Positions 3,641-25,462 of a DNA stretch of 64,000 nt are shown here, one piece after another. Where the stretch lies: the NCBI GenBank assembly GCA_040755995.1, contig JBFMAF010000016.1, forward strand, positions 67,172-131,171, read 5' to 3'. Source of the stretch: Acidobacteriota bacterium (lineage in GTDB: Bacteria > Acidobacteriota > CAIWXX01). The notes under the pieces are model-generated. The model did not search any database. It was not told the DNA's origin and saw nothing but the letters and a program-made list of their open reading frames with translations. Every line of letters starts with the position of its first letter. Position 1 is the first letter of the stretch. Made by a program: the position numbers and the translations under genes.

Positions 3641-4029
3641 CGCGCCTGGACTGAGCGTCGTCGGACCGCTGACCGGGTTGAGGTCCCGGATCGGACCAAG
3701 CATCGCTTCGCGGTGGCAGGAGCCTCGAAGCTCCCGAACAGGGCTACCCTCCCGTCGTGATCAACCGTCGATCCCCACAACTTCGCCGCCGAACGCGCCC
3801 ATCTTCCGTCCCCGGGGCGGAGGATGGGTCCATGTGCTTCCACTTCCATGCTGGTGTTACTACCCCAGTAGTAATTCCGACACGCAGTCCGAAAAGCGAC
3901 TTCCTGTGTCCTCAATAGCTGGCCCGAGAACGTGGGATTCGCGGGCCGCATCGGTTGTTTTCAAACAGTGCCGCCGAAGAGAGAGGGTTATCTTCCCGAC
4001 GAGCAGAACGCCGGACGCGATGTGGCGTG

Positions 4030-4785
4030 TCAGGGCAGCTCCAGCGTTCGCAGCCACATGTAGAAGTCAGCCGTTGTGAACAGCTCGTTGGTTTCGTTGT
4101 CCAAGCTCTGAATTTCTGCGACATAGCCGACATACGGTGCGATCCAATAGTATCTGATGAAGGACCAGGGTTCAGAACCTCCGAAGCTGATCTTCACCTG
4201 AACCATCGCCGAGTCATTGAATGTGCCGGCGCCGACGATCACCGTGCCCTTGGCGACGACCCTCGTGACGACGGTCATGGGAATGCTCCCTTCGGAGAAG
4301 ACGAGTGATGTCCGTTGAGTAACAGCCTTTCCCACCTTCGCGGGGAAGAAGAAGAGCCGGAACTTCGGTGCAAAACTGAAGTTCTCATCGGCATCGCCAT
4401 TTGTATTCGACATCCCGTAGAAGTAGAGGCCGGCCGGAGTCTTCTTCAGAAAGCTGCATACCTTATCTCCACCGGGCTTGACTACTTGCAGAGCCACGGC
4501 CGCATCCGGGTAGTTGCCACCGTTGTACGCCTGGGACTTGTCGATCCACGCGCTGGCGACGGTCGCCATCCTGGGACCGCCTGTCAGGTCCCAGGGCGGA
4601 CTGAAAGTCAGTGTGACAGGCACGGTGATACCGCTGGTATTGGAGTACCAAGTTCCCTTGATTCCAATCGTCACGGGGTAGTGGCCGGCCTTGATCGTGA
4701 CGTTGGGGGAGCCTGGCCAGGCAGAGTGGGCCATCGTGCAGATGAACAGAATGGCCGATACGGCTGAAAGAGCTCGCTTGTTCAC
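4030..4785 (-). CDS. Secreted beta-rich hypothetical protein
   Basis: GGAGGT RBS then GTG at 4785 (ORF track start 4803); signal peptide; V.VGAGTF..S and YYWIAPYVGYV motifs typical of DUF3108-like/TapB-like proteins. Confidence 0.7.
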   Translation of the reverse strand: MNKRALSAVSAILFICTMAHSAWPGSPNVTIKAGHYPVTIGIKGTWYSNTSGITVPVTLTFSPPWDLTGGPRMATVASAWIDKSQAYNGGNYPDAAVALQVVKPGGDKVCSFLKKTPAGLYFYGMSNTNGDADENFSFAPKFRLFFFPAKVGKAVTQRTSLVFSEGSIPMTVVTRVVAKGTVIVGAGTFNDSAMVQVKISFGGSEPWSFIRYYWIAPYVGYVAEIQSLDNETNELFTTADFYMWLRTLELP

Positions 4786-5489: not shown

Positions 5490-6340
5490 TCGCGGCCCTA
5501 CTGCCGATATGCTCGTTCGCGAGTCTGGAACGGCTGCAGCGAGGGGGGGTGGCTCGAATCGTCTGCTATCGGTTCGTCGAGCCGCGATCGGGGAGAGGGA
5601 GCTGTGGGTCGAGCGTCCCCCGCTTGTACGTGGCGGTATAGAACGGCGTCAGGTAGTGCTCCCCCTTCTCACGAGAGGTGAAGTACTTCGCGACGAGCGA
5701 CATCCAGGCCAGCTCGGCCTGCGTGAAGCTCTTGTTTTTCACCATCATGAAGGCGATCTTGAAGTTCTTCGCCGAGTCCTTTGCAGCAGGGATGCGCGGT
5801 CCCCCCGCTTCGTCCAGGAGCTCCTGGATGCTCCAGGTCTCCACCTGCCCGGCCGTCACTCGGTCCGGGTCGCTGTAGTCCGGCTGGATCAGCCGATGCA
5901 CGGGCTTGACCTTCCCGGGCGGCGCCAGGCCCATCAGATACAGGTCAAGCCACGAGTAGCGCTCGGTAATGGGATTCACTGGCACGACCCGCCACGTGCC
6001 GTCGCCGTTGCCATGCAGATGGCCGGAACGCGATCCGGCGAACACAAAGCTCGACATCTGCCCCGCGACGTCGTTGTAGATGACATTCGGGTCGAATGAT
6101 GCGTAGAGGAACGCACCGGTGCGTTCTGCACGAGCAACCTGAGTGAAGCCGAGAGCCGCTATGGCCGCGACCGCGAATCCGATCTTCTGCATTTCGACAC
6201 CCCCACCATCCCGATCTGCAAGCCGAACACCCAACCTGTATAGACCACCCCATCTGCGTTTCGTACCAATCGTGGCGGGCTATGCGCGGCCCTACTTGAG
6301 ATGCTTGAGCAGTGCCGAGTCGGTCGATAGGATCAGCCAG
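5490..6340. repeat. Diverged direct duplication, copy 2
   Basis: Homologous to 281-1899 except for a 771-bp internal deletion. Confidence 0.9.
5566..6192 (-). pseudogene. Internally deleted, in-frame paralog of the 465-aa peptidase (208 aa, lacks HEXXH)
   Basis: MQKIG...NVIYND joined directly to VAGQMSS...; 465-257=208 aa. Confidence 0.85.
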
Positions 6341-17320: not shown

Positions 17321-19090
17321 GTGATGATGATGAGAAGAATCGCTCTCGCCACTTTGAGCATGCTCGCCGTACCAGTGCTCTACGCGCACCAGACACTGAA
17401 GACTCTGACACTTTCTCCGGATTTCAGCGAGGTCGCGGGGACGCCTCGCATGGCGACGGACACTACCCAGCGCCAGTGGGCGGTCGCGTGGCTTCAATAT
17501 GGGAGCCCCGTCAAGATCATGGGGCGCATCGTGAAGCCGGATGGGAGCCTGAAGCCGCCCAAACTGCTTGCATCGTCAGTCGAGGAGTTCGAGCAGAATT
17601 TTGACCTCGCATACGGCTTCGTCGATCGCACCTATCTGCTCGTCTTCGAGAATGCTGCCGGATTGCAGGTCCAACGGCTCACGAAGGACCTGGCGCGGAA
17701 GGGGAAGCCGATTCTGATCGAGGCGGGAACTGAAGGAGTGAATCCGAGGATGGTGTACGATCCCACGGGCAATCGATTCCTGGTGATCTGGATCGGCAAC
17801 CAGGATGGAAGCGAGCGCAACGCGCTCAGAGGCGCGGTGCTGGCCTCGACGGGCGTGCCCACTGAGCCTGCGCACACGCTGGCCCTCGCTGCGAAAGGAC
17901 GAGCGTTGGCCATTCCGTCGGTCGTGCGCAACGAAGAGACCAACAACTTCACGGTTCTGGTCGTGGAGAAGACCGGCACGGCCGGACGGTTTCTGGGCTT
18001 CACTGCCAGGCCCGATGGATCGCTGCTGCGCTCGACGCCGATTCAATTTCAGGGCATGACCCCGGGGCTCAGCGCCATTGGCGCCTCGGCGTACTCCGAG
18101 AGCGGGTTCGGGTTTGCAGCGTGGCTCGACCGGGGCAAGCTCAAATACCGAAAGGTCTCGCCGACCGGCGGCCTGGCATCGGGCATCAAGACGGTGGCGA
18201 ACGCGGCCGACAGCAGCAGCTCCGAGGTCTCCTTTGTGTACGACGGATCCCACGACGAATTCGTTGGGGTCTGGACCAAAGCCAACGGGGCGTACGCTGC
18301 GGGGCTGGCCGAGGCATCAGGCAAGGTGTCCGACGCGCCGTTTCAGATCGCCGCGTCGGCGCTGAGCCAGTCTCTCCATCCTGCACTATCGATCGATCAG
18401 ACATCTGGTCGACTGTTTGCAATCTGGGAGGACAGCCAGGCCGCGTCGAGATCGGCCATCGCAGCCGCCACGAAGTACAGGGTACGAGCTGCGCTGTTCG
18501 CCAGGGAGGCGCAGGGTGCCGTCGTAGACGTCTCCGGCGAGGACAACGTCTTCGCGCCGTCTACGGTCAATATTTCGCCAGGCGACACCGTGAGGTGGAC
18601 GATGACCGGCAACAATCCGCATACGGTGACGAGTGGAACGCCTTCATCTTCCCCCGGTACGCTGTTCGACAGCGGCACGCTGACCAAGGGCCAGACGTTC
18701 CAGTTTCAATTCACGACTCCGGGAACGTACCCGTACTTCTGCCGAATTCATGGCGCAATGATGTCCGGAACGGTCGTAGTGGGCGGGGGGCCTTCGACGA
18801 AGCAGGTCTCCATTGGAGACGGCTCCTTCGCTCCAGCCTCGATCTCGGTGGCTGCCGGGTCCACCGTCACGTGGAAAATGAGCTCGACCATGCAGCACAC
18901 GGTAACCAGCGGCTCTCCCTCGTCGTCGCCCGGGGCGCTCTTCGACAGCGGCACCTTGAAATCCGGCGATGTCTTCAGTTTCCGATTCACCGACGCCGGA
19001 ACATACACTTACTACTGCCGCCTGCACGGGGACGGGATGTCGGGTACGGTGGAGGTCACATCTTACGACGGGGGTGGGGACCCGTATTGA
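17321..19090 (+). CDS. Secreted protein with repeat-rich N-terminal domain and two C-terminal plastocyanin-like cupredoxin domains
   Basis: Signal peptide; two PHTV/QHTV...Y(F/Y)CR(I/L)HG..MSG type-1 copper motifs. Confidence 0.85.
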   Translation: MMMMRRIALATLSMLAVPVLYAHQTLKTLTLSPDFSEVAGTPRMATDTTQRQWAVAWLQYGSPVKIMGRIVKPDGSLKPPKLLASSVEEFEQNFDLAYGFVDRTYLLVFENAAGLQVQRLTKDLARKGKPILIEAGTEGVNPRMVYDPTGNRFLVIWIGNQDGSERNALRGAVLASTGVPTEPAHTLALAAKGRALAIPSVVRNEETNNFTVLVVEKTGTAGRFLGFTARPDGSLLRSTPIQFQGMTPGLSAIGASAYSESGFGFAAWLDRGKLKYRKVSPTGGLASGIKTVANAADSSSSEVSFVYDGSHDEFVGVWTKANGAYAAGLAEASGKVSDAPFQIAASALSQSLHPALSIDQTSGRLFAIWEDSQAASRSAIAAATKYRVRAALFAREAQGAVVDVSGEDNVFAPSTVNISPGDTVRWTMTGNNPHTVTSGTPSSSPGTLFDSGTLTKGQTFQFQFTTPGTYPYFCRIHGAMMSGTVVVGGGPSTKQVSIGDGSFAPASISVAAGSTVTWKMSSTMQHTVTSGSPSSSPGALFDSGTLKSGDVFSFRFTDAGTYTYYCRLHGDGMSGTVEVTSYDGGGDPY

Positions 19091-19125
19091 CTTCTCTCCC
19101 GACGCGTACCTGATCGGCGAGAGAC

Positions 19126-19166
19126 GGCGGAAGGGACGAGGTCTGCGAGCGTCCCTTTCGCCTTTC
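19126..19166 (+). terminator. Putative intrinsic terminator
   Basis: ggcggaagggacg / cgtccctttcgcc 13-bp stem followed by ttt, just after the cupredoxin gene. Confidence 0.55.
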
Positions 19167-19252
19167 CCACTCCCGGCACCTTCGCCGTAATACCCTGTTG
19201 CCCGGCTGGCGAACCGCGATCAGCACAGGAACGATCCATGCGAGGGCATCGG

Positions 19253-19504
19253 TTAGCCGGCGGGAGCCTGCTCCTTGCGCCGCCACACGAGCCATGCCGA
19301 CCGCAGTCTGCCGATAACGAGCGACACAACACCCGCGAGCAGAAACGTCATGTCTCCCGTCATGCGAACCAAGTGTTTAACATCGGCGACCTCCGTCCCG
19401 TTCCCGACTCGGGCATTCGCACCCGCGGTCAGGGCTCGGTGGAGAAACTCCGCTTGGCGTCGGGGGCGTGGGTGGAGTAGAATCGCCCCCAACGAAAGGG
19501 ACAC
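19253..19504 (-). pseudogene. Possible 3' remnant of a quinol-dependent NO reductase-like gene
   Basis: RQAEFL and VRMTGDMTFLLAGVVSL resemble the qNor C-terminal ARS.EF and LRM.GD..F..G motifs (recalled, not searched). Confidence 0.25.
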
Positions 19505-19559
19505 CCACCGAGCGGTGCGCGCCGAGGCCTTTGCGCACCATGGGGTCAGGCAACGCCGG

Positions 19560-20534
19560 ATGATTCAAGACGGGCTCGTCGAGTATCTCATGCCGCTCAG
19601 AACTGTGCCGAAGAACTTTGCCCGACTCGACACGCAGCGCCTGATGCTCCAAGACCGCGTTCGCGTGGCCGCACTGCAACGGGCGATCACCGCGGCTGTA
19701 CAGCCGGGCGACGTGGTGCTCGAGATCGGAACGGGAACGGGCCTGCTGGCGATTCTCGCGGCACGCGCCGGTGCTCGCAGGGTATACGCGATTGAGATGA
19801 CGGAGATGGTGGAGGTCGCGCGCGAGATGGTGCGCCGAAACGGCCTGGCGGCGCAGATCCAGATACTGGAAGGCGTGTCGTTCGAGATCGAGCTACCGGA
19901 GCGTGCTGACGTGCTGATCAGCGAGACCCTGGGGCATCTCGGCATAGACGAGGGCATCGTGCAGACCGTAGCTGATGCGCGCCGGCGCCTCCTGAAACCT
20001 CACGCGCTCCAGGTGCCCATCAGCCTCGACATCCTGCTTGCCCTGACAGCCGATCGCGCAGCGCAGAATCGCGAGCTGGCATTCTGGCGCCAACCGCTCG
20101 CAGGTGTTGACTGCAGCGCCGCTGCCGACGCCGCCGCCGGCCGCGTCTACCTGCGACGCGTCATGGATAGCGAGTTGCTTTCACATCCACGGATCGTAGC
20201 TCACATCGACCTGACCACGGCAGAACAGCCGCCCGCTGTGTTTGGTGCATGCCTCGCCGTCTGCAGGGCCGGCGAGGTGAGCGGAATCGCAGCCTGGTTT
20301 GAGTGCCAGCTCTTCGACGACGTGCGCCTCATGTCGCGAAGCACGTCGAATTGGTACCCGGTCCTCTTCCCGGTCGACCCGCCGCTTGCGGTGGCCCCGA
20401 TGGAGGAAGTCCGGAGCTGCATCACCGTGCGCGAGCATCGAGGTGAGGCAGCATGGTCATGGTGTGTGCGCGGCGTCTCTGGGGAACGCAGGTGCGGGCG
20501 CTGTGATCTACCTGACCCCGGACAGCTGTCTTGA
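19560..20534 (+). CDS. Protein-arginine-methyltransferase-like class I SAM methyltransferase
   Basis: MLQDRVR, VLEIGTGTGLLAILAARAGARRVYAIE, double-E loop-like DVLISETLGHLGIDE, GIAAWF and STSNWYP (THW-loop-like). Confidence 0.85.
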   Translation: MIQDGLVEYLMPLRTVPKNFARLDTQRLMLQDRVRVAALQRAITAAVQPGDVVLEIGTGTGLLAILAARAGARRVYAIEMTEMVEVAREMVRRNGLAAQIQILEGVSFEIELPERADVLISETLGHLGIDEGIVQTVADARRRLLKPHALQVPISLDILLALTADRAAQNRELAFWRQPLAGVDCSAAADAAAGRVYLRRVMDSELLSHPRIVAHIDLTTAEQPPAVFGACLAVCRAGEVSGIAAWFECQLFDDVRLMSRSTSNWYPVLFPVDPPLAVAPMEEVRSCITVREHRGEAAWSWCVRGVSGERRCGRCDLPDPGQLS

Positions 20535-20675
20535 GGTGGAAGAACTTCGGTCGACGACGCCTATCAATACGATCCGGCCAGGTGCAGAGAGAGCTGGCAA
20601 CAGGCTGTTCGAGTGTGCGAGAATAGGGGCAGGAGAGAATGCCGATCGGGGGCGGAATCTGCCCGCGATGCGAGG

Positions 20676-21776
20676 ATGAGATCCTACACATGGCCCCAGG
20701 CCGCCGTCTGGGAGACGACCCTGGCGTGCGACATGCGTTGCCGCCACTGCGGATCTTACGCGGGGCGTGCCCGCGCCGAGGAGCTCCCGACCAGGGTGAC
20801 GCTCGACCTCTGCGACCAGCTCATAGACATCGGTTGCTCGCGGGTGATCCTCTCCGGCGGCGAGACCTTTCTCAGGGAGGACTGGGAGGAGATCGCGACG
20901 AGGCTCTTGAGGGGGCGGTGCGAAGTCGGGATCATCTCGAACGGTTTGATGCTGGGCACGGGCTCTGCTCTGCTGGATCGGCTCACGAGTGTCCGCCTCG
21001 AATCGGGAGAGATCACGGTCGGCATCAGCCTGGACGGCCTGGAAGAGACTCACGACTCGATCCGCGGGATGCCGGGAAGCTTCAGGGCTGCGCTCAGGGC
21101 CGTCGACCTGCTCATGGAGCGTAGCATCGCTGTCGTCGTGCTGACGACGGTGAATCGAATGAATCTGCTCGACCTGCTCCCTCTGCGCGACGAGGTCATA
21201 TACCCCCGGCGACCTTATGCGTGGCAGGTTCAGACATCCAACTATTACGGGAGAATGAGGGCGCACCCGGAGTGGGTGCTGGCCGATGAGGACTACATGG
21301 AGCTTGCCGAGATTCTGGCGGAGTCCCGACGGCTTCGCCGATCGGAGCCGAGGACGGACCCGGCGGATTGCATCGGCTACTACGGGATACTCGAAGGCGA
21401 TCTGCGGGAAACACCCTGGAACGGCTGTCAGGCGGGGCTCCGCTGCGTCGGCATCCAGAGCAACGGGAACGTGAAGGGCTGCCTCTCGCTGATCGACGAC
21501 CGGTTTGTCGAAGGGAACATCCGCGAACGATCGCTCCTGGAGATATGGGACACGCCTGGGGCGTTCGCGTACAACCGCGAGGCGGACCCGGGGCGGCTGG
21601 AGGGCCTTTGCGCCGGATGCGAGCACGGGCGGAAATGCCATGGCGGCTGCCGGTCGTCTGCACACTCTCACACGGGATCGCTGTACAGCGCTCCCTATTG
21701 CCTGTACGGTTTCCAGAGGGCCCGGCCGAGCCCATCGCTTGCCGGGGTAACGGGATGCGAGCCAGCAATACAGTAG
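20676..21776 (+). CDS. Radical SAM/SPASM peptide maturase, PlpX-like (splicease family)
   Basis: AVWETTLACDMRCRHCGSYAGRAR, SLDGLEETHDSIRG, AWQVQ, IGYYG, WNGCQAG..GIQSNGNVKGCLSL, CxxC-x5-C-xxx-C and PYC SPASM motifs. Confidence 0.9.
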   Translation: MRSYTWPQAAVWETTLACDMRCRHCGSYAGRARAEELPTRVTLDLCDQLIDIGCSRVILSGGETFLREDWEEIATRLLRGRCEVGIISNGLMLGTGSALLDRLTSVRLESGEITVGISLDGLEETHDSIRGMPGSFRAALRAVDLLMERSIAVVVLTTVNRMNLLDLLPLRDEVIYPRRPYAWQVQTSNYYGRMRAHPEWVLADEDYMELAEILAESRRLRRSEPRTDPADCIGYYGILEGDLRETPWNGCQAGLRCVGIQSNGNVKGCLSLIDDRFVEGNIRERSLLEIWDTPGAFAYNREADPGRLEGLCAGCEHGRKCHGGCRSSAHSHTGSLYSAPYCLYGFQRARPSPSLAGVTGCEPAIQ

Positions 21777-21785
21777 GAGGGCACC

Positions 21786-22127
21786 ATGAAAATCTCGAGT
21801 CATCAGGCGGCGGTCACAGCGATCAAGACCGCACTGACCGGCAAGACCGCAGCCGCTGGAAAGGCGAAGCGGAGCGAGCCACTCGCCACGCTCAAGAGGG
21901 CCGGCCCGGCGGACGTGTCCAAGATCTTCTCGCGAAAAGTGGGCGGGCTACCGGCGGATGCCCCGCAAATCAAGATGATGTACGGCCTCCCCACCATGCC
22001 GGCCGACAAGCTCCCTGGCCCCGTCCTGCGGTATGGCCTCATTCCGCATCTGCAATCGCAGCAGCCCACAGAGCCGCAGATCATCATGAAATACGGGATC
22101 GCCCCAAAGCCAGGTTCCAATGAATGA
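21786..22127 (+). CDS. Putative RiPP precursor with three XYG motifs (113 aa)
   Basis: AGGAGG RBS; 9 bp after the rSAM stop; PQIKMMYGLP, PGPVLRYGLIP, PQIIMKYGIAP. Confidence 0.8.
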   Translation: MKISSHQAAVTAIKTALTGKTAAAGKAKRSEPLATLKRAGPADVSKIFSRKVGGLPADAPQIKMMYGLPTMPADKLPGPVLRYGLIPHLQSQQPTEPQIIMKYGIAPKPGSNE

Positions 22128-22145
22128 CCGTGGGGGAGTCACGCC

Positions 22146-22418
22146 ATGAAGACGCAGCAGCCTGAACTGCAGTTCCGGGTATTAGACAGAGTCGTGGCCC
22201 AGGGCCGGACACGGCTCGAGAGCATGTTTCGCGAGACCATGTCGGACCTCTCACAGCTTTCGCGGGAATCGCTCGACGATGAACAGCGCCACGAGCTGGA
22301 TAGTCTGCTCGATGCGTACCGTCTCGTCGAGGAGCTCGTCATGGAACTGGTCTCTCTCAAGGAGGACCTGATGCTCAGAGCGAGATCGGAATCCGGGAGG
22401 GTCAGATGTCGCACCTGA
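22146..22418 (+). CDS. Small acidic helical hypothetical protein (90 aa)
   Basis: GGGGGAG RBS; operon spacing; amphipathic helical pattern. Confidence 0.75.
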   Translation: MKTQQPELQFRVLDRVVAQGRTRLESMFRETMSDLSQLSRESLDDEQRHELDSLLDAYRLVEELVMELVSLKEDLMLRARSESGRVRCRT

Positions 22419-22828
22419 ACATCCAGGCAAGTCCGGAAGAGGTGCTCGTCCTGATGGAAGCCAGCATGCTCTTCTACGCCCGATGCGAGTACGAGAAAGC
22501 GGAGAAGGTCCTTCGAGGCGCCCTCGTCATGTCACCCGGCAATTCTGATATCTACGCCTGCCTGGGGGCTCTCTATCACGCGCAGGACCGTCTGGATGAA
22601 GCCTACGAGTGCTATGAGCAAGCGCTCAAGGGATGCCCGTCGGAAGAGTGCGCGCGGAGCAACCGGGCCACGCTTCTGATGCAACGAGGCAAGGCCGAGG
22701 ACGCGATCCAGGAGCTCAAGCGGGTGATCCAGGAGCACGATCCCTCCAACCCGGTCGTCGAACGCTCGAAGGAGCTCCTAAAGGTGGCCGAGTCGCTTGT
22801 CACGCGGAAGACAGGGGCCGCCGGATAA
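22406..22828 (+). CDS. Small TPR protein (140 aa), secretion-chaperone-like
   Basis: About three TPRs (YEKAEKVLRGAL..SP, LGALYHAQDRLDEAYECYEQAL, RATLLMQRGKAEDAIQEL); overlaps the upstream gene. Confidence 0.85.
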   Translation: MSHLNIQASPEEVLVLMEASMLFYARCEYEKAEKVLRGALVMSPGNSDIYACLGALYHAQDRLDEAYECYEQALKGCPSEECARSNRATLLMQRGKAEDAIQELKRVIQEHDPSNPVVERSKELLKVAESLVTRKTGAAG

Positions 22829-23008
22829 CATGTGGCTATCGGGTCTGCTGTAGGACCGAGGGCGCGTCCGGGCGGCACTGGGCTGAGGGCGGGGCCGCGT
22901 CGCCGTCCGAACCGGCCGGAGCACGATGTGCCCGACCGCGATCCTGGACAGCCAAACCGCCCCGGCCTATACTTGAGTCATCATAGAGGATTCCGGGGAG
23001 GTGGACTC

Positions 23009-25462
23009 ATGAGATGCAATTCACTCCTCACCGTGGCTCTGCTGGTTATGGGAGCCAGCATTCTTTCATCAGGCGATAACCGGTGGACATGCATCGGTCC
23101 GTATGGCGGCGACATTGGCAAGTTCGCGTTCCATCCGTCGCTTCACAATCTAGTTTTCGCAAGCGGGGATACTGGGCTGTTCCGAAGCGCGGATGGTGGG
23201 CGCAAGTGGGAGCGTGTGCATGACTCGTGGGTGGTGGGAGACGGCACCGAGCCGAATGTGCGCATACACCCCGCAGACGGAGCGCGGGTCTTCCTGGCAG
23301 ATGACCGTCTGTATGTCAGTAGTGACCGTGGAACCACATGGCAGCTGATATCACGGGAGCCGTTTCCGGAGCGGGCCTCTGACTTCGAGATGGATCCGTC
23401 CGACCCGAGTGTCCTGTACATACTCACACGGCTTCACGGAGTGTACAGGAGCACGGACGGCGGAGTGACGTGGGCTCCGAGGAACTCCGGATTGGACATC
23501 CCCGCAGGCCGTTTTGCCGCCAGACCTCAGTTGGAAATCAACCCGACTGGCGGCAACACGCTCTATGTCTTGCTGCCAGATCACAAGATCTTCAAGACGA
23601 CTACCGGTGGTGCTCACTGGAAGCGCATGGATAAAGGAATCGATCCCAGCTCGGACGGAAGAGCGCTCATGATCGACCCTTCGAATACAGACTTCCTGTA
23701 CACAGCGGGCGAGGCTGGAGTATTCAAGACCACAGACGCCGGAATGAACTGGGCCAAGGTCCATGACGCTGCCACATGGGGACTCGCAACAGACCACGGG
23801 AGACCCAATTCTGTCTACGCAGTGAGGCTGTCTGAATTGCTCAAAACCGTCGACGGGGGCGCCACCTGGACATCGATCGACCTGGATCTCTCTCATGCTA
23901 CCGTTGCCGGCGTTCATCCCTCCAAGGACAATCTCATCCTAGTCGGAGAGAAACTGGGCATCACCCGGTCCACGGACACGGGTAAGTCATGGCATGCCGT
24001 GAACGCAGGCATTGACAACTACCTGGCAACCCGAATGGCCTATACAGAGAGTCCTGTGAAACGACTGTTCTGCGTTGCGTCTGCCGCCCTCTACGAGAGT
24101 CAGGATGGCGGAAGAAACTGGGCGCTGTCTTCACTTTCCGAGGAAGGTCGGCTTGTGATCGACCTGCAGGTTCACGCTGCAAACCCGCGGCTGATTTTCG
24201 CGGGGTTGGGCGTGACGACCGAAATCCTCGCCCTGAGCCGCGACGGCGGCTCAACATGGGAGTTCGGAGCTCCTATCCGCAAGACCGGGTGGTGCCATGG
24301 TGTGGCGATAGCACTCGACCCGCGTGAGGAGAGCATTGTTTACATGGCGGTCTGGGAAGATCGCGAGAACGCTCCACGCATAGGACGCGGAGTGGCAAAG
24401 AGCACGGACCAGGGGCAGACCTGGCGATTCATGAACGCAGGGCTCTCGGAAAGGTATGTAACTGCACTCGCCGTCGATCCGAGACGTGCCTCGGTACTCT
24501 TGGCCGGCACAGGCGATCTGCACGGCCAGGGCGTGGCCACCGGCCAGATATTCAAGACCACAAACGGCGGAGCAACATGGAAGAAGAGCAGCACTGGTCT
24601 GGCCGAGGACGAGGTTCTGGTGTCGGCGATCACGTTCGACCCGGATGATTCCACAGTTGTTTACACAGCCACAGGTTCCGGTGTGTACAAGAGCAGCGAT
24701 GGCGGTCGAACCTGGGCGCTCAAGACAGGTCCGCTGGGCTGTGCTTTCGTGCAGCCTCTGCCGGCAATGCCAAAGACCCTAATGGCGGGCAGGTCCGGCA
24801 GCCTCCTGATCTCGATTGATCAAGGTGAGTCCTGGACGGCCTTCGATTCCACTGGCCTCGGCCCCTTCGGCATGAACGACTTCATGCTCGACCCATTGGA
24901 CTCAAGCCGCTACCTCATAGGCACCAACCGCGGAGTCTTCTCATATACCCGGAAGGGTGCTATTGGGGGTCCTGTCATCCAGCAGCTCTCGCCTGACGCC
25001 GGGAGAGTCGGTGACTCCGTGACGATCAACGGGAGCGGATACGGCCAGCTCCAGCTGGACTCGAAAGTGCGCTTCGGATCAATCGATGCCGGCGTCGCGC
25101 AATCGTGGTCGGACGAGAGCATCAGAGTGACGGTGCCGTCTGGCGCCCGCACCGGGGCGGTAGCGGTCACGGTACTTGGCAAGAAGAGCAACGCTTTCGG
25201 CTTCATCGTCATGCCGGCCACCGGGAACATAGAGCCCACGGGCGGCCCGGCCTCAGGCGGCACACGCGTCACGATCCTCGCCCCATCGGGAACCTCGGGC
25301 ACACAGTTCAACGTGCTCTTCGGCTCCACCCTCGCCAGGAATATCGGTTTCGTCCAGCCGAATGTTATCACGTGCGAGAGCCCACCTGGCTCGGGCACGG
25401 TCGAGGTGAAGGTGACGAGCAGCGTGACGAGCACGACCGTGGGCCAATTCACGTACTACTGA
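23009..25462 (+). CDS. Secreted Asp-box (BNR/VPS10/Ycf48-like) beta-propeller protein with C-terminal IPT/TIG domains
   Basis: Many (R/K)STDGG.TW Asp-boxes; signal peptide; LSPDAGRVGDSVTINGSGYG and PTGGPASGGTRVTI IPT motifs. Confidence 0.88.
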   Translation: MRCNSLLTVALLVMGASILSSGDNRWTCIGPYGGDIGKFAFHPSLHNLVFASGDTGLFRSADGGRKWERVHDSWVVGDGTEPNVRIHPADGARVFLADDRLYVSSDRGTTWQLISREPFPERASDFEMDPSDPSVLYILTRLHGVYRSTDGGVTWAPRNSGLDIPAGRFAARPQLEINPTGGNTLYVLLPDHKIFKTTTGGAHWKRMDKGIDPSSDGRALMIDPSNTDFLYTAGEAGVFKTTDAGMNWAKVHDAATWGLATDHGRPNSVYAVRLSELLKTVDGGATWTSIDLDLSHATVAGVHPSKDNLILVGEKLGITRSTDTGKSWHAVNAGIDNYLATRMAYTESPVKRLFCVASAALYESQDGGRNWALSSLSEEGRLVIDLQVHAANPRLIFAGLGVTTEILALSRDGGSTWEFGAPIRKTGWCHGVAIALDPREESIVYMAVWEDRENAPRIGRGVAKSTDQGQTWRFMNAGLSERYVTALAVDPRRASVLLAGTGDLHGQGVATGQIFKTTNGGATWKKSSTGLAEDEVLVSAITFDPDDSTVVYTATGSGVYKSSDGGRTWALKTGPLGCAFVQPLPAMPKTLMAGRSGSLLISIDQGESWTAFDSTGLGPFGMNDFMLDPLDSSRYLIGTNRGVFSYTRKGAIGGPVIQQLSPDAGRVGDSVTINGSGYGQLQLDSKVRFGSIDAGVAQSWSDESIRVTVPSGARTGAVAVTVLGKKSNAFGFIVMPATGNIEPTGGPASGGTRVTILAPSGTSGTQFNVLFGSTLARNIGFVQPNVITCESPPGSGTVEVKVTSSVTSTTVGQFTYY

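Follow-up and report, generated by a model that had tools for sequence, protein, structure and literature searches.

Spliceases are, to our knowledge, the only enzymes that install beta-amino acids and ketoamide warheads in ribosomal proteins, and their development into protein-engineering tools is under way. In the Plp system, both the Tyr and the Gly of the splice site are required. The types into which spliceotides are divided were reportedly defined by Scott et al. 2022 (Chem). The reaction of spliceases is the excision of tyramine at X-Tyr-Gly (XYG) sites (PMC11414181; PMC9811515). The pathways have been sorted into types, and hundreds of non-cyanobacterial ones lack a Y protein (PMC11414181). 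The splicease is activated by a helix, which may belong to the leader (in cis) or to PlpY (in trans) and which also works when fused (PMC11414181). In further papers, 27 splicease systems are counted as characterized and 939 as predicted (PMC10533398), YG-rich neighbors of PlpX-like enzymes are found across 189 genera (PMC10849128), and ketoamide spliceotides are described as inhibitors of Ser and Cys proteases (PMC11626197). Here we analyze a gene cassette at positions 19560-22828 of a 64,000-nt stretch of DNA from a soil-type Acidobacteriota bacterium (assembly GCA_040755995.1, contig JBFMAF010000016.1, positions 67,172 to 131,171, forward strand). This whole stretch is called the window below, and all positions refer to it unless a related locus is named. 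The cassette encodes a radical S-adenosylmethionine (rSAM)/SPASM enzyme followed directly by a 113-aa protein with three Tyr-Gly (YG) sites. Very probably, the enzyme acts on these three sites. A splicease-type cassette, including excision of tyramine from a triple-XYG substrate, is the best explanation that we can offer from sequence comparison, and our belief in it and our doubt about it are evenly balanced.

Results

All five genes between 19560 and 22828 lie on the + strand. The second gene encodes the rSAM/SPASM enzyme, a splicease-like maturase of 366 aa if translation starts at the ATG at 20676, or of 387 aa if it starts at the GTG at 20613, and ends at 21776. Its TAG stop codon (21774-21776) is followed after 9 nt by the ATG (21786) of the 113-aa open reading frame (ORF; 21786-22127), and the AGGAGG ribosome-binding site (RBS; 21775-21780) ahead of this ORF overlaps the stop codon. 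The 113-aa protein, which we refer to as the substrate or precursor, has a helical, leader-like N-terminal part and then three Pro-flanked X-Tyr-Gly sites, which can be read directly as M65-Y66-G67 (site 1, 21978-21986), R82-Y83-G84 (site 2, 22029-22037), and K102-Y103-G104 (site 3, 22089-22097). Y66, Y83, and Y103 are exactly the Tyr residues of the protein, and each is followed by Gly in the units PQIKMMYGLP, PGPVLRYGLIP, and PQIIMKYGIAP, respectively. The five co-oriented genes, the 9-bp spacing, the RBS, and the placement of all three Tyr in YG units had been pointed out in a preliminary description of this DNA, and each was confirmed in the sequence. Site 1, MMYGLP, is similar to a PlpA3-derived splice tag, GGPIRPGYGLPI, given as ...P(G/M)YGLPI in PMC10533398. 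The region of the sites is predicted as coil, and the AlphaFold2 (AF2) model of a related fused substrate (from locus L001, see below) was of low confidence, with a mean predicted local distance difference test score (pLDDT) of 38.7 that makes it usable for secondary structure only. Neither the 113-aa protein nor the 90-aa protein encoded after it matched Pfam or NCBIfam at E <= 0.01, and there was no Nif11 or NHLP leader and no PqqD-like protein. No GDL motif can be read in the sequence of the 113-aa protein.

The concentration of Tyr residues in YG pairs was compared with the rest of the genome in a six-frame scan of all 7.7 Mb, which returned 8243 ORFs that started with M, were at least 60 aa long, and contained at least three Tyr. 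Every Tyr stood in YG in only 2 of these 8243 ORFs genome-wide, of which the 113-aa ORF was one, and the 113-aa ORF alone had at least two copies of the extended motif. This property of the ORF is more than chance.

The enzyme matched the Pfam families PF04055 (Radical_SAM, 63.3 bits) and PF13186 (SPASM, 34.3 bits), and its CxxxCxxC motif (C18, C22, and C25) and eight further Cys residues were invariant in 25 aligned homologues. Its best three NCBIfam models were TIGR04103 (rSAM_nif11_3, the PlpX equivalog; 213.9 bits, and 213.1 bits in the genome-wide search), TIGR03913 (190 bits), and TIGR04133 (171 bits), for which the curated cut-offs are 725, 591.75, and 425 bits, respectively. The next family was NirJ at 114.5 bits. 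The three models named in the preliminary description therefore do rank at the top, and membership in their equivalogs does not hold, because scores under the cut-offs imply that the enzyme is a distant relative of TIGR04103, TIGR03913, and TIGR04133. A literature search on these three models returned no paper. Among the related loci (numbered with the prefix L), all 73 relatives that were scanned, out of 147 loci with long matches, had TIGR04103 or TIGR03913 as their first NCBIfam match. The motifs that the preliminary description had attributed to PlpX are all present in the enzyme (WETTLACDMRCRHC, SLDGLEETHDSIRG, AWQVQ, IGYY, WNGCQAG, and KGCLS), and most of them also occur in the enzymes of L062 and L064, which are near TIGR04103 (602 and 598 bits on partial sequence), and of L038 and L045, which are true members of TIGR03913 (616 and 615 bits). 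Among 8000 candidates scored, 819 were homologues at E <= 1e-20, and the closest named ones came from metagenome-assembled genomes of Acidobacteriota and Myxococcota. The closest solved structures were SkfB and PqqE, and the PDB search with the enzyme returned no splicease structure. These comparisons place the enzyme within the splicease-related part of the SPASM superfamily.

Related loci, 80 from species genomes and 80 from metagenomes, were searched with the five window proteins. Orthologues of the tetratricopeptide repeat (TPR) protein encoded by the last gene of the cassette, with 41-52% identity, were encoded directly after the substrate in L001, L002, L089, L090, L091, L092, and L093; the match was weaker in L099 (27-28% identity) and doubtful in L003. 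In every TPR-bearing locus, a substrate was encoded between the enzyme and the TPR gene, and its X-Tyr-Gly sites numbered two or three. The 90-aa protein matched seven of these loci. The enzyme, the substrate, its helical domain, and the TPR protein were all that the loci shared, and their flanks differed. The homologous clusters that the preliminary description had called for were thus found: an X-Tyr-Gly protein adjoins the enzyme in nine of nine loci of the window clade.

The N-terminal parts of the nine orthologous substrates aligned with a mean column identity of 33%. Invariant in all nine were M1, G67, Y83, G84, P87, Y103, and G104, so that the YG pairs of sites 2 and 3 were kept in 9 of 9 substrates, and the Tyr of site 1 was present in 8 of 9. 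Over the nine substrates there were 26 YG sites, and the Gly after Tyr was invariant at all 26. The invariance of these pairs in proteins with only 33% mean identity implies that selection acts on the Tyr-Gly pairs. The residue X ahead of the Tyr was mostly Arg, Lys, or Met. A word-based homologue search with the 113-aa protein found only the protein itself, and the orthologues were recovered through the neighborhood of the enzyme.

In the wider family, a YG neighbor was scored by a strict rule that called for three or more YG in a span of 90 residues, no other Tyr in between, and a distance of at most 1.5 kb from the enzyme on either strand. The rule was satisfied at 20 of 147 loci, compared with 3 of 600 random 4-kb windows of the genome and 1 of 116 far flanks. 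It undercounts, because it drops L001 (by its overlap rule) and archaeal YKAGTxYGTVS repeats (which have an extra Tyr), and many contigs are short. In the near-TIGR04103 loci L062 and L064, QPVYGVIQPP occurred five times beside the enzyme.

A FastTree phylogeny was built from 145 enzymes, with three distant SPASM paralogues from the window's genome as outgroup; L062 and L064 (near TIGR04103) and L038 and L045 (TIGR03913) served as proxies for spliceases. The eight TPR-linked enzymes formed one clade (Shimodaira-Hasegawa-like support 95-97), which was nested, along with two Myxococcota clades, in a group of 22 enzymes (support 93). The deep order of the tree is unsure, because the program warns of long-branch joins. 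At E <= 1e-60, the enzyme was found in 6 of 301 genomes of the window's phylum, including the window's own genome; it occurred in neither of the 2 genomes of the window's family and in 4 of 8 genomes of another family. The cassette is rare and its spread is patchy.

Directly after the substrate, an in-frame TGA (22125-22127) parts it from what, by homology, is its former C-terminal domain, and next come an RBS (GGGGGAG) and an ATG at 22146. The 90-aa protein encoded from this start (22146-22418, +) is in the same reading frame as the 113-aa ORF, and one TGA plus 18 nt lies between them. It is homologous to the last 77 aa of the fused substrates, which identifies it as the substrate's own C-terminal helical domain, a detached "follower" domain. 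The domain is fused to the substrate in L001, L002, L090, L091, L171, and L099, and it is split off in the window, L089, L092, and L093. In L092, a TGA and 3 nt (5517-5522 of that locus) come between the two, the frame is kept, and the domain starts at a GTG; in L089 the domain follows a TAA in another frame, and in L093 the gap is about 160 nt. The nine copies of the domain had a mean identity of 49%. The AF2 model of the 90-aa protein was a helical hairpin (mean pLDDT 80.4; helices at residues 11-18, 21-36, and 45-85), for which Foldseek returned no match in the PDB at E <= 0.001 (best E 1.6). In the prediction of a complex between the enzyme and the 90-aa protein, both given as alignments, the interface score ipSAE was 0.06 and 0.02, compared with a mark of 0.32; as values without controls, these count neither for nor against an interaction.

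When 1.84 billion representative proteins were searched with a profile of the helical domain, 14 matched at E <= 0.001. Thirteen of the 14 were examined, leaving out a 1234-aa protein with seven matched stretches. Five of the 13 were proteins of 193-208 aa with three XYG ahead of the domain, and the other eight were stand-alone proteins of 58-88 aa; two of the five fused proteins (P0127 and P0130) had no counterpart among the nine aligned substrates. The small number of representatives and their division into fused and stand-alone forms imply that the family is rare and that fission or fusion occurred more than once. As a separate observation, an in-frame split by a single TGA was seen in 2 of the 4 split loci (TGA-C in the window and TGA-G in L092), which is not beyond chance. 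Occasional read-through of the in-frame TGA would yield the fused form.

The last gene of the cassette (22406-22828, +) overlaps the 90-aa gene by 13 nt and encodes a 140-aa protein of three TPR repeats, with matches to Pfam TPR_2, TPR_1, and others. Its nearest solved sequences were generic peptide-binding TPR proteins (the consensus TPR protein CTPR3, OGT, and PEX5). Its recurrence at the related loci makes the TPR protein the third conserved component of the cassette. The preliminary description had joined the 90-aa and TPR proteins as a chaperone-like pair; the TPR half of that pair stands as a conserved component, and the 90-aa half is instead the detached substrate domain. The literature covered on spliceases, to which Scott et al. 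2022 does not belong, mentions no TPR partner and no C-terminal follower domain, and "tetratricopeptide" occurs nowhere in PMC11414181, PMC10533398, PMC11626197, and PMC9811515.

Type III TPR chaperones (SycD/LcrH and the CdsG/PscG type) resemble this gene pair in that a three-repeat TPR protein of ~140 aa is encoded together with a small helical hairpin protein, and there were weak matches to SycD/LcrH (TIGR02552, 40.9 bits) and CdsG (E 5e-5) and Foldseek rows for EscE and EsaH. However, these Foldseek rows had E above 1, and the likeness is generic to TPR proteins and helical hairpins. A role as a type III secretion chaperone was rejected, given the TIGR02552 cut-off of 104.8 bits and the lack of secretion genes nearby.

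The first of the five genes (19560-20534, +) encodes a 324-aa SAM-dependent methyltransferase of the protein arginine methyltransferase (PRMT) type, the upstream co-oriented neighbor of the enzyme gene. Its ATG at 19560 is backed by the start of a paralogue. Among Pfam families, PrmA matched at 40.8 bits, and PRMT_C (25.3 bits) and PRMT5_C (27.9 bits) fell just below their cut-offs. Searches against the PDB matched PRMT6, CARM1, and PRMT1 with E of 4e-30 to 1e-24 over residues 20-291, which cover the SAM domain and the barrel; the order of a Rossmann SAM domain and then a beta-barrel/oligomerization domain is that of a PRMT. The genes on either side of the cassette encode a cupredoxin protein of 589-620 aa with two C-terminal cupredoxin domains (17321-19090) and a protein of 876 aa that has BNR/Sortilin repeats and TIG domains (22832-25462), and neither is conserved with the cassette. 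Other neighbors (a DAO oxidoreductase, an aminotransferase, and QueC) are all unrelated to it. Rfam gave no match at E <= 0.1 on 18900-23300.

Several further features were seen at loci of the wider family. At the Myxococcota loci L004 (1671-3404), L005, L006, L008 (6093-7945), L009 (6158-8040), L010 (4317-5968), L011, L095, and L106, the substrate-like proteins are 200-250 aa long, with a conserved helical domain in the middle and motifs of the GPIYIMAPGG type at the C-terminus. A second rSAM gene lies directly downstream in L004, L005, L008, L009, and L010. Locus L093 belongs to the TPR clade; its substrate (3925-4428) has just two RYGIV sites and carries the PP(M/I)YI(M/L)PPGG motif found at the C-termini of Myxococcota proteins. 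At the archaeal and metagenome loci L041, L044, L136, L140, L159, L163, and L134, short ORFs beside the enzyme contain tandem repeats of the kind DVYKAGTxYGTVS or DVYKSGGxYGTIS. The neighboring ORF in L013, L119, L121, L132, L135, and L145 contains WIYG..GM.H.FCFP and reads as a putative methyltransferase. An upstream ORF of about 391-504 aa occurs at L022, L023, L028, L030, L037, L058, L117, and L167, which are loci from Zixibacteria, Ignavibacteria, and FCB; in at least six of these eight it carries APxMACNMxCxYCYE and is a putative second rSAM protein; a long ORF lies downstream in L028, L037, and L117, and no Tyr-Gly run was seen at these eight loci.

Discussion

Interpretation of this cassette starts from direct observations, namely the gene order, the homology, the conservation of the sites, the fusion and fission of the helical domain, and the rare and patchy spread. 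The most likely reaction is the one known from PlpX, RhaX, RcsX, and RasX: tyramine (C8H9NO, -135 Da) would be excised as a unit from the substrate's backbone, and the preceding residues, Met65, Arg82, and Lys102, would each become an alpha-keto-beta-amino amide. The product would then bear three ketoamide warheads, two of them on basic residues, a set that would fit it to inhibit trypsin-like serine or cysteine proteases. An Arg/Lys-type ketoamide is a classical pharmacophore for trypsin-like proteases. Since the 90-aa domain is separated from the substrate by a stop codon and a new start, its role can be done in trans. The 90-aa protein may dock either to the enzyme or to the TPR protein, which would parallel the published cis and trans activation of spliceases by a helix. 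The TPR protein could have the role of a chaperone or peptide-binding adaptor, serving either the disordered, proline-rich region of the sites or the helical domain. A bolder version of this scheme strikes us as improbable: that the 90-aa protein is a trans-acting splicease activator, a PlpY analogue that arose by substrate fission, that together with the TPR protein it replaces a PqqD-type RiPP recognition element (RRE; RiPP, a peptide that is ribosomally synthesized and then modified post-translationally), and that the product is a protein of ~110-200 aa with three beta-Arg, beta-Lys, or beta-Met ketoamides.

The splicease reading, already put forward in the preliminary description, draws support from the family scores and from the conserved YG neighbors, and the enzyme is not a member of the three equivalogs. 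Several observations weigh against it. The enzyme scored far under all three curated cut-offs (213.9 vs 725, 190 vs 591.75, and 171 vs 425 bits). In the tree, the window clade lay on a main branch of 93 rows, and the members of TIGR03913 and the near-TIGR04103 enzymes, that is, all four splicease proxies, lay on the other (52 rows); we know of no characterized enzyme on the window clade's main branch. Under the strict rule, no YG run was seen beside the enzyme at 127 of the 147 wider-family loci, in some cases because of short contigs or the rule's own exclusions. In a sister Myxococcota clade, the substrates carry the repeats VAAKYMVVRPP, VAKYIAPKP, TPKYAVVP, and TPKYGVKPP, in which Tyr is followed by M, I, A, and G, respectively, and within the TPR clade itself the L093 substrate adds three PP(M/I)YI(M/L)PPGG motifs. 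The core common to the sister clades is Tyr-x-hydrophobic-(x)-Pro, with Gly fixed in the window's clade only, and the Tyr-Met, Tyr-Ile, and Tyr-Ala repeats imply that Gly is no general requirement and that the chemistry may differ. Finally, no peptidase or exporter was conserved with the cassette, either at the related loci or among the window's neighbors, and a secreted small RiPP is therefore not evident.

These points lead to the rival that has to be taken most seriously, in which the cassette and the sites are the same and the enzyme performs another radical reaction, such as a cross-link, a hydroxylation, or an edit of backbone or side chain, on the Tyr or its neighbor in Y-x-hydrophobic-(x)-Pro. 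The scores below every splicease cut-off, the position on a main branch without members of the curated families, the KYM, KYI, KYA, and KYG repeats of the sister clade, and the PxYI(M/L)PPGG motifs of L093 all fit this rival, and we keep it as a possibility, on the unlikely side, mainly because the sister clades vary the residue after Tyr. By contrast, the invariance of Gly at the 26 YG sites of the nine clade substrates and the retention of three XYG in each of the five fused proteins argue for tyramine excision. So does the MYGLP context of site 1, which matches the published Plp splice tag (PMC10533398), as does the fact that tyramine excision is the sole chemistry demonstrated for any relative. 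That the enzyme has no functional link to the YG protein at all, serving instead another pathway of the cofactor or heme type beside an unrelated proline-rich protein, is very hard to credit. Secondary NCBIfam matches of the NirJ and AhbD type (~111-115 bits) and the many family members with no visible YG neighbor would suit such an arrangement; it leaves the conserved gene order, the 9-nt spacing, and the RBS overlapping the stop codon without a reason, together with the retention of the cassette in nine loci with unrelated flanks. Moreover, the YG pairs are almost the only invariant residues of the substrate, and the genome-wide rarity of such an ORF argues against chance.

The remaining alternative is the five-gene system of the preliminary description, in which the PRMT-type methyltransferase would tailor the spliced product (e.g., by methylating Arg82 or another Arg), with the two small proteins acting as a chaperone pair. 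The methyltransferase gene is co-oriented and ends 78-141 nt upstream of the enzyme gene, with no terminator-like site between them, so that co-transcription may occur here; moreover, the protein is a PRMT homologue, and Arg is often at the X position in the substrate and its orthologues. However, no methyltransferase homologue was found in any of the 160 rSAM loci, and five rSAM-bearing genomes searched for it gave only weak generic matches. The window's genome (G000) has a paralogue with 64% identity on another contig (G000:C32:85876-86823), and homologues occurred in 11 of 41 related genomes, G000 included, none of which, G000 apart, was among the genomes matched by the rSAM enzyme. The other methyltransferase copies had no shared neighbors, and hence this test of synteny gave no picture of an insertion or deletion of the cassette. 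The chaperone pair, for its part, conflicts with the homology of the 90-aa protein to the C-terminus of the relatives' substrates. The five-gene system is thus a doubtful proposition. The absence of the methyltransferase from the 160 loci and its presence in genomes without the enzyme imply that it is probably a mere neighbor, and its place in the system, as first proposed, finds no support in comparison; judged by this distribution, it is most likely an unrelated gene.

If tyramine excision is confirmed, this cassette would extend splicease chemistry to a deep, uncharacterized branch of the family, and the mostly basic X residues predict ketoamides of the Arg/Lys type. The occurrence of fused and split helical domains in close relatives is a natural experiment on enzyme activation, and the TPR protein may represent a new type of partner in substrate handling. 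If instead the chemistry differs, the Tyr-Met and Tyr-Ile sister clades would mark this branch as one from which new radical peptide chemistry can be drawn.

Among described systems, the TIGR03913 "GDL motif peptide-associated" trio (Azospirillum and others), together with TIGR04133, is like the window cassette in that these are the second and third models for the enzyme, in the same superfamily, and repeat proteins neighbor many relatives. Unlike them, the window enzyme scores 190 vs 591.75 and 171 vs 425 bits, the TIGR03913 enzymes of L038 and L045 lie on the other main branch, and there is no GDL motif. The type I systems PlpX/PlpY/PlpA and PcpXYA (Pleurocapsa; TIGR04103; PMC11414181, PMC11002830) provide the best-scoring model and share the motifs WETTL.C...C.HC, S.DG....HD..RG, AWQ.Q, W.GC.AG, and KGC.S; MYGLP resembles the Plp splice tag, and the small helical protein acting in trans would be a possible functional parallel to PlpY. 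In contrast to type I, the window enzyme reaches 214 of 725 bits, there is no Nif11 or NHLP leader, epimerase neighbor, or PqqD-like protein, and the 90-aa protein, by origin a piece of the substrate, is modeled as an all-helical hairpin. The lack of a Nif11 leader and of PlpY, on which the preliminary description had partly rested a claim of novelty, is real and is not new, since binary spliceotide types are already known to have neither (PMC11414181).

Such binary type II systems, RhaX/RhaA, RcsX/RcsA, and RasX/RasA of Rheinheimera, as described in PMC11414181 and PMC11626197, are similar to the window cassette in that an rSAM/SPASM enzyme adjoins its substrate, the sites are X-Tyr-Gly, and there is no PlpY or RRE; likewise, activation of the enzyme by a helical part of the substrate is presumed, and the expected product is a ketoamide protease inhibitor. 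The window enzyme differs in being far under the TIGR04103 cut-off and on the other main branch, a comparison made through the family models and the proxies, and the window has no graspetide or peptidase neighbors. Moreover, the substrate here has three sites compared with one or two, with X mostly basic, the conserved helical domain lies C-terminal of the sites and is split off, and the cassette encodes a dedicated TPR protein.

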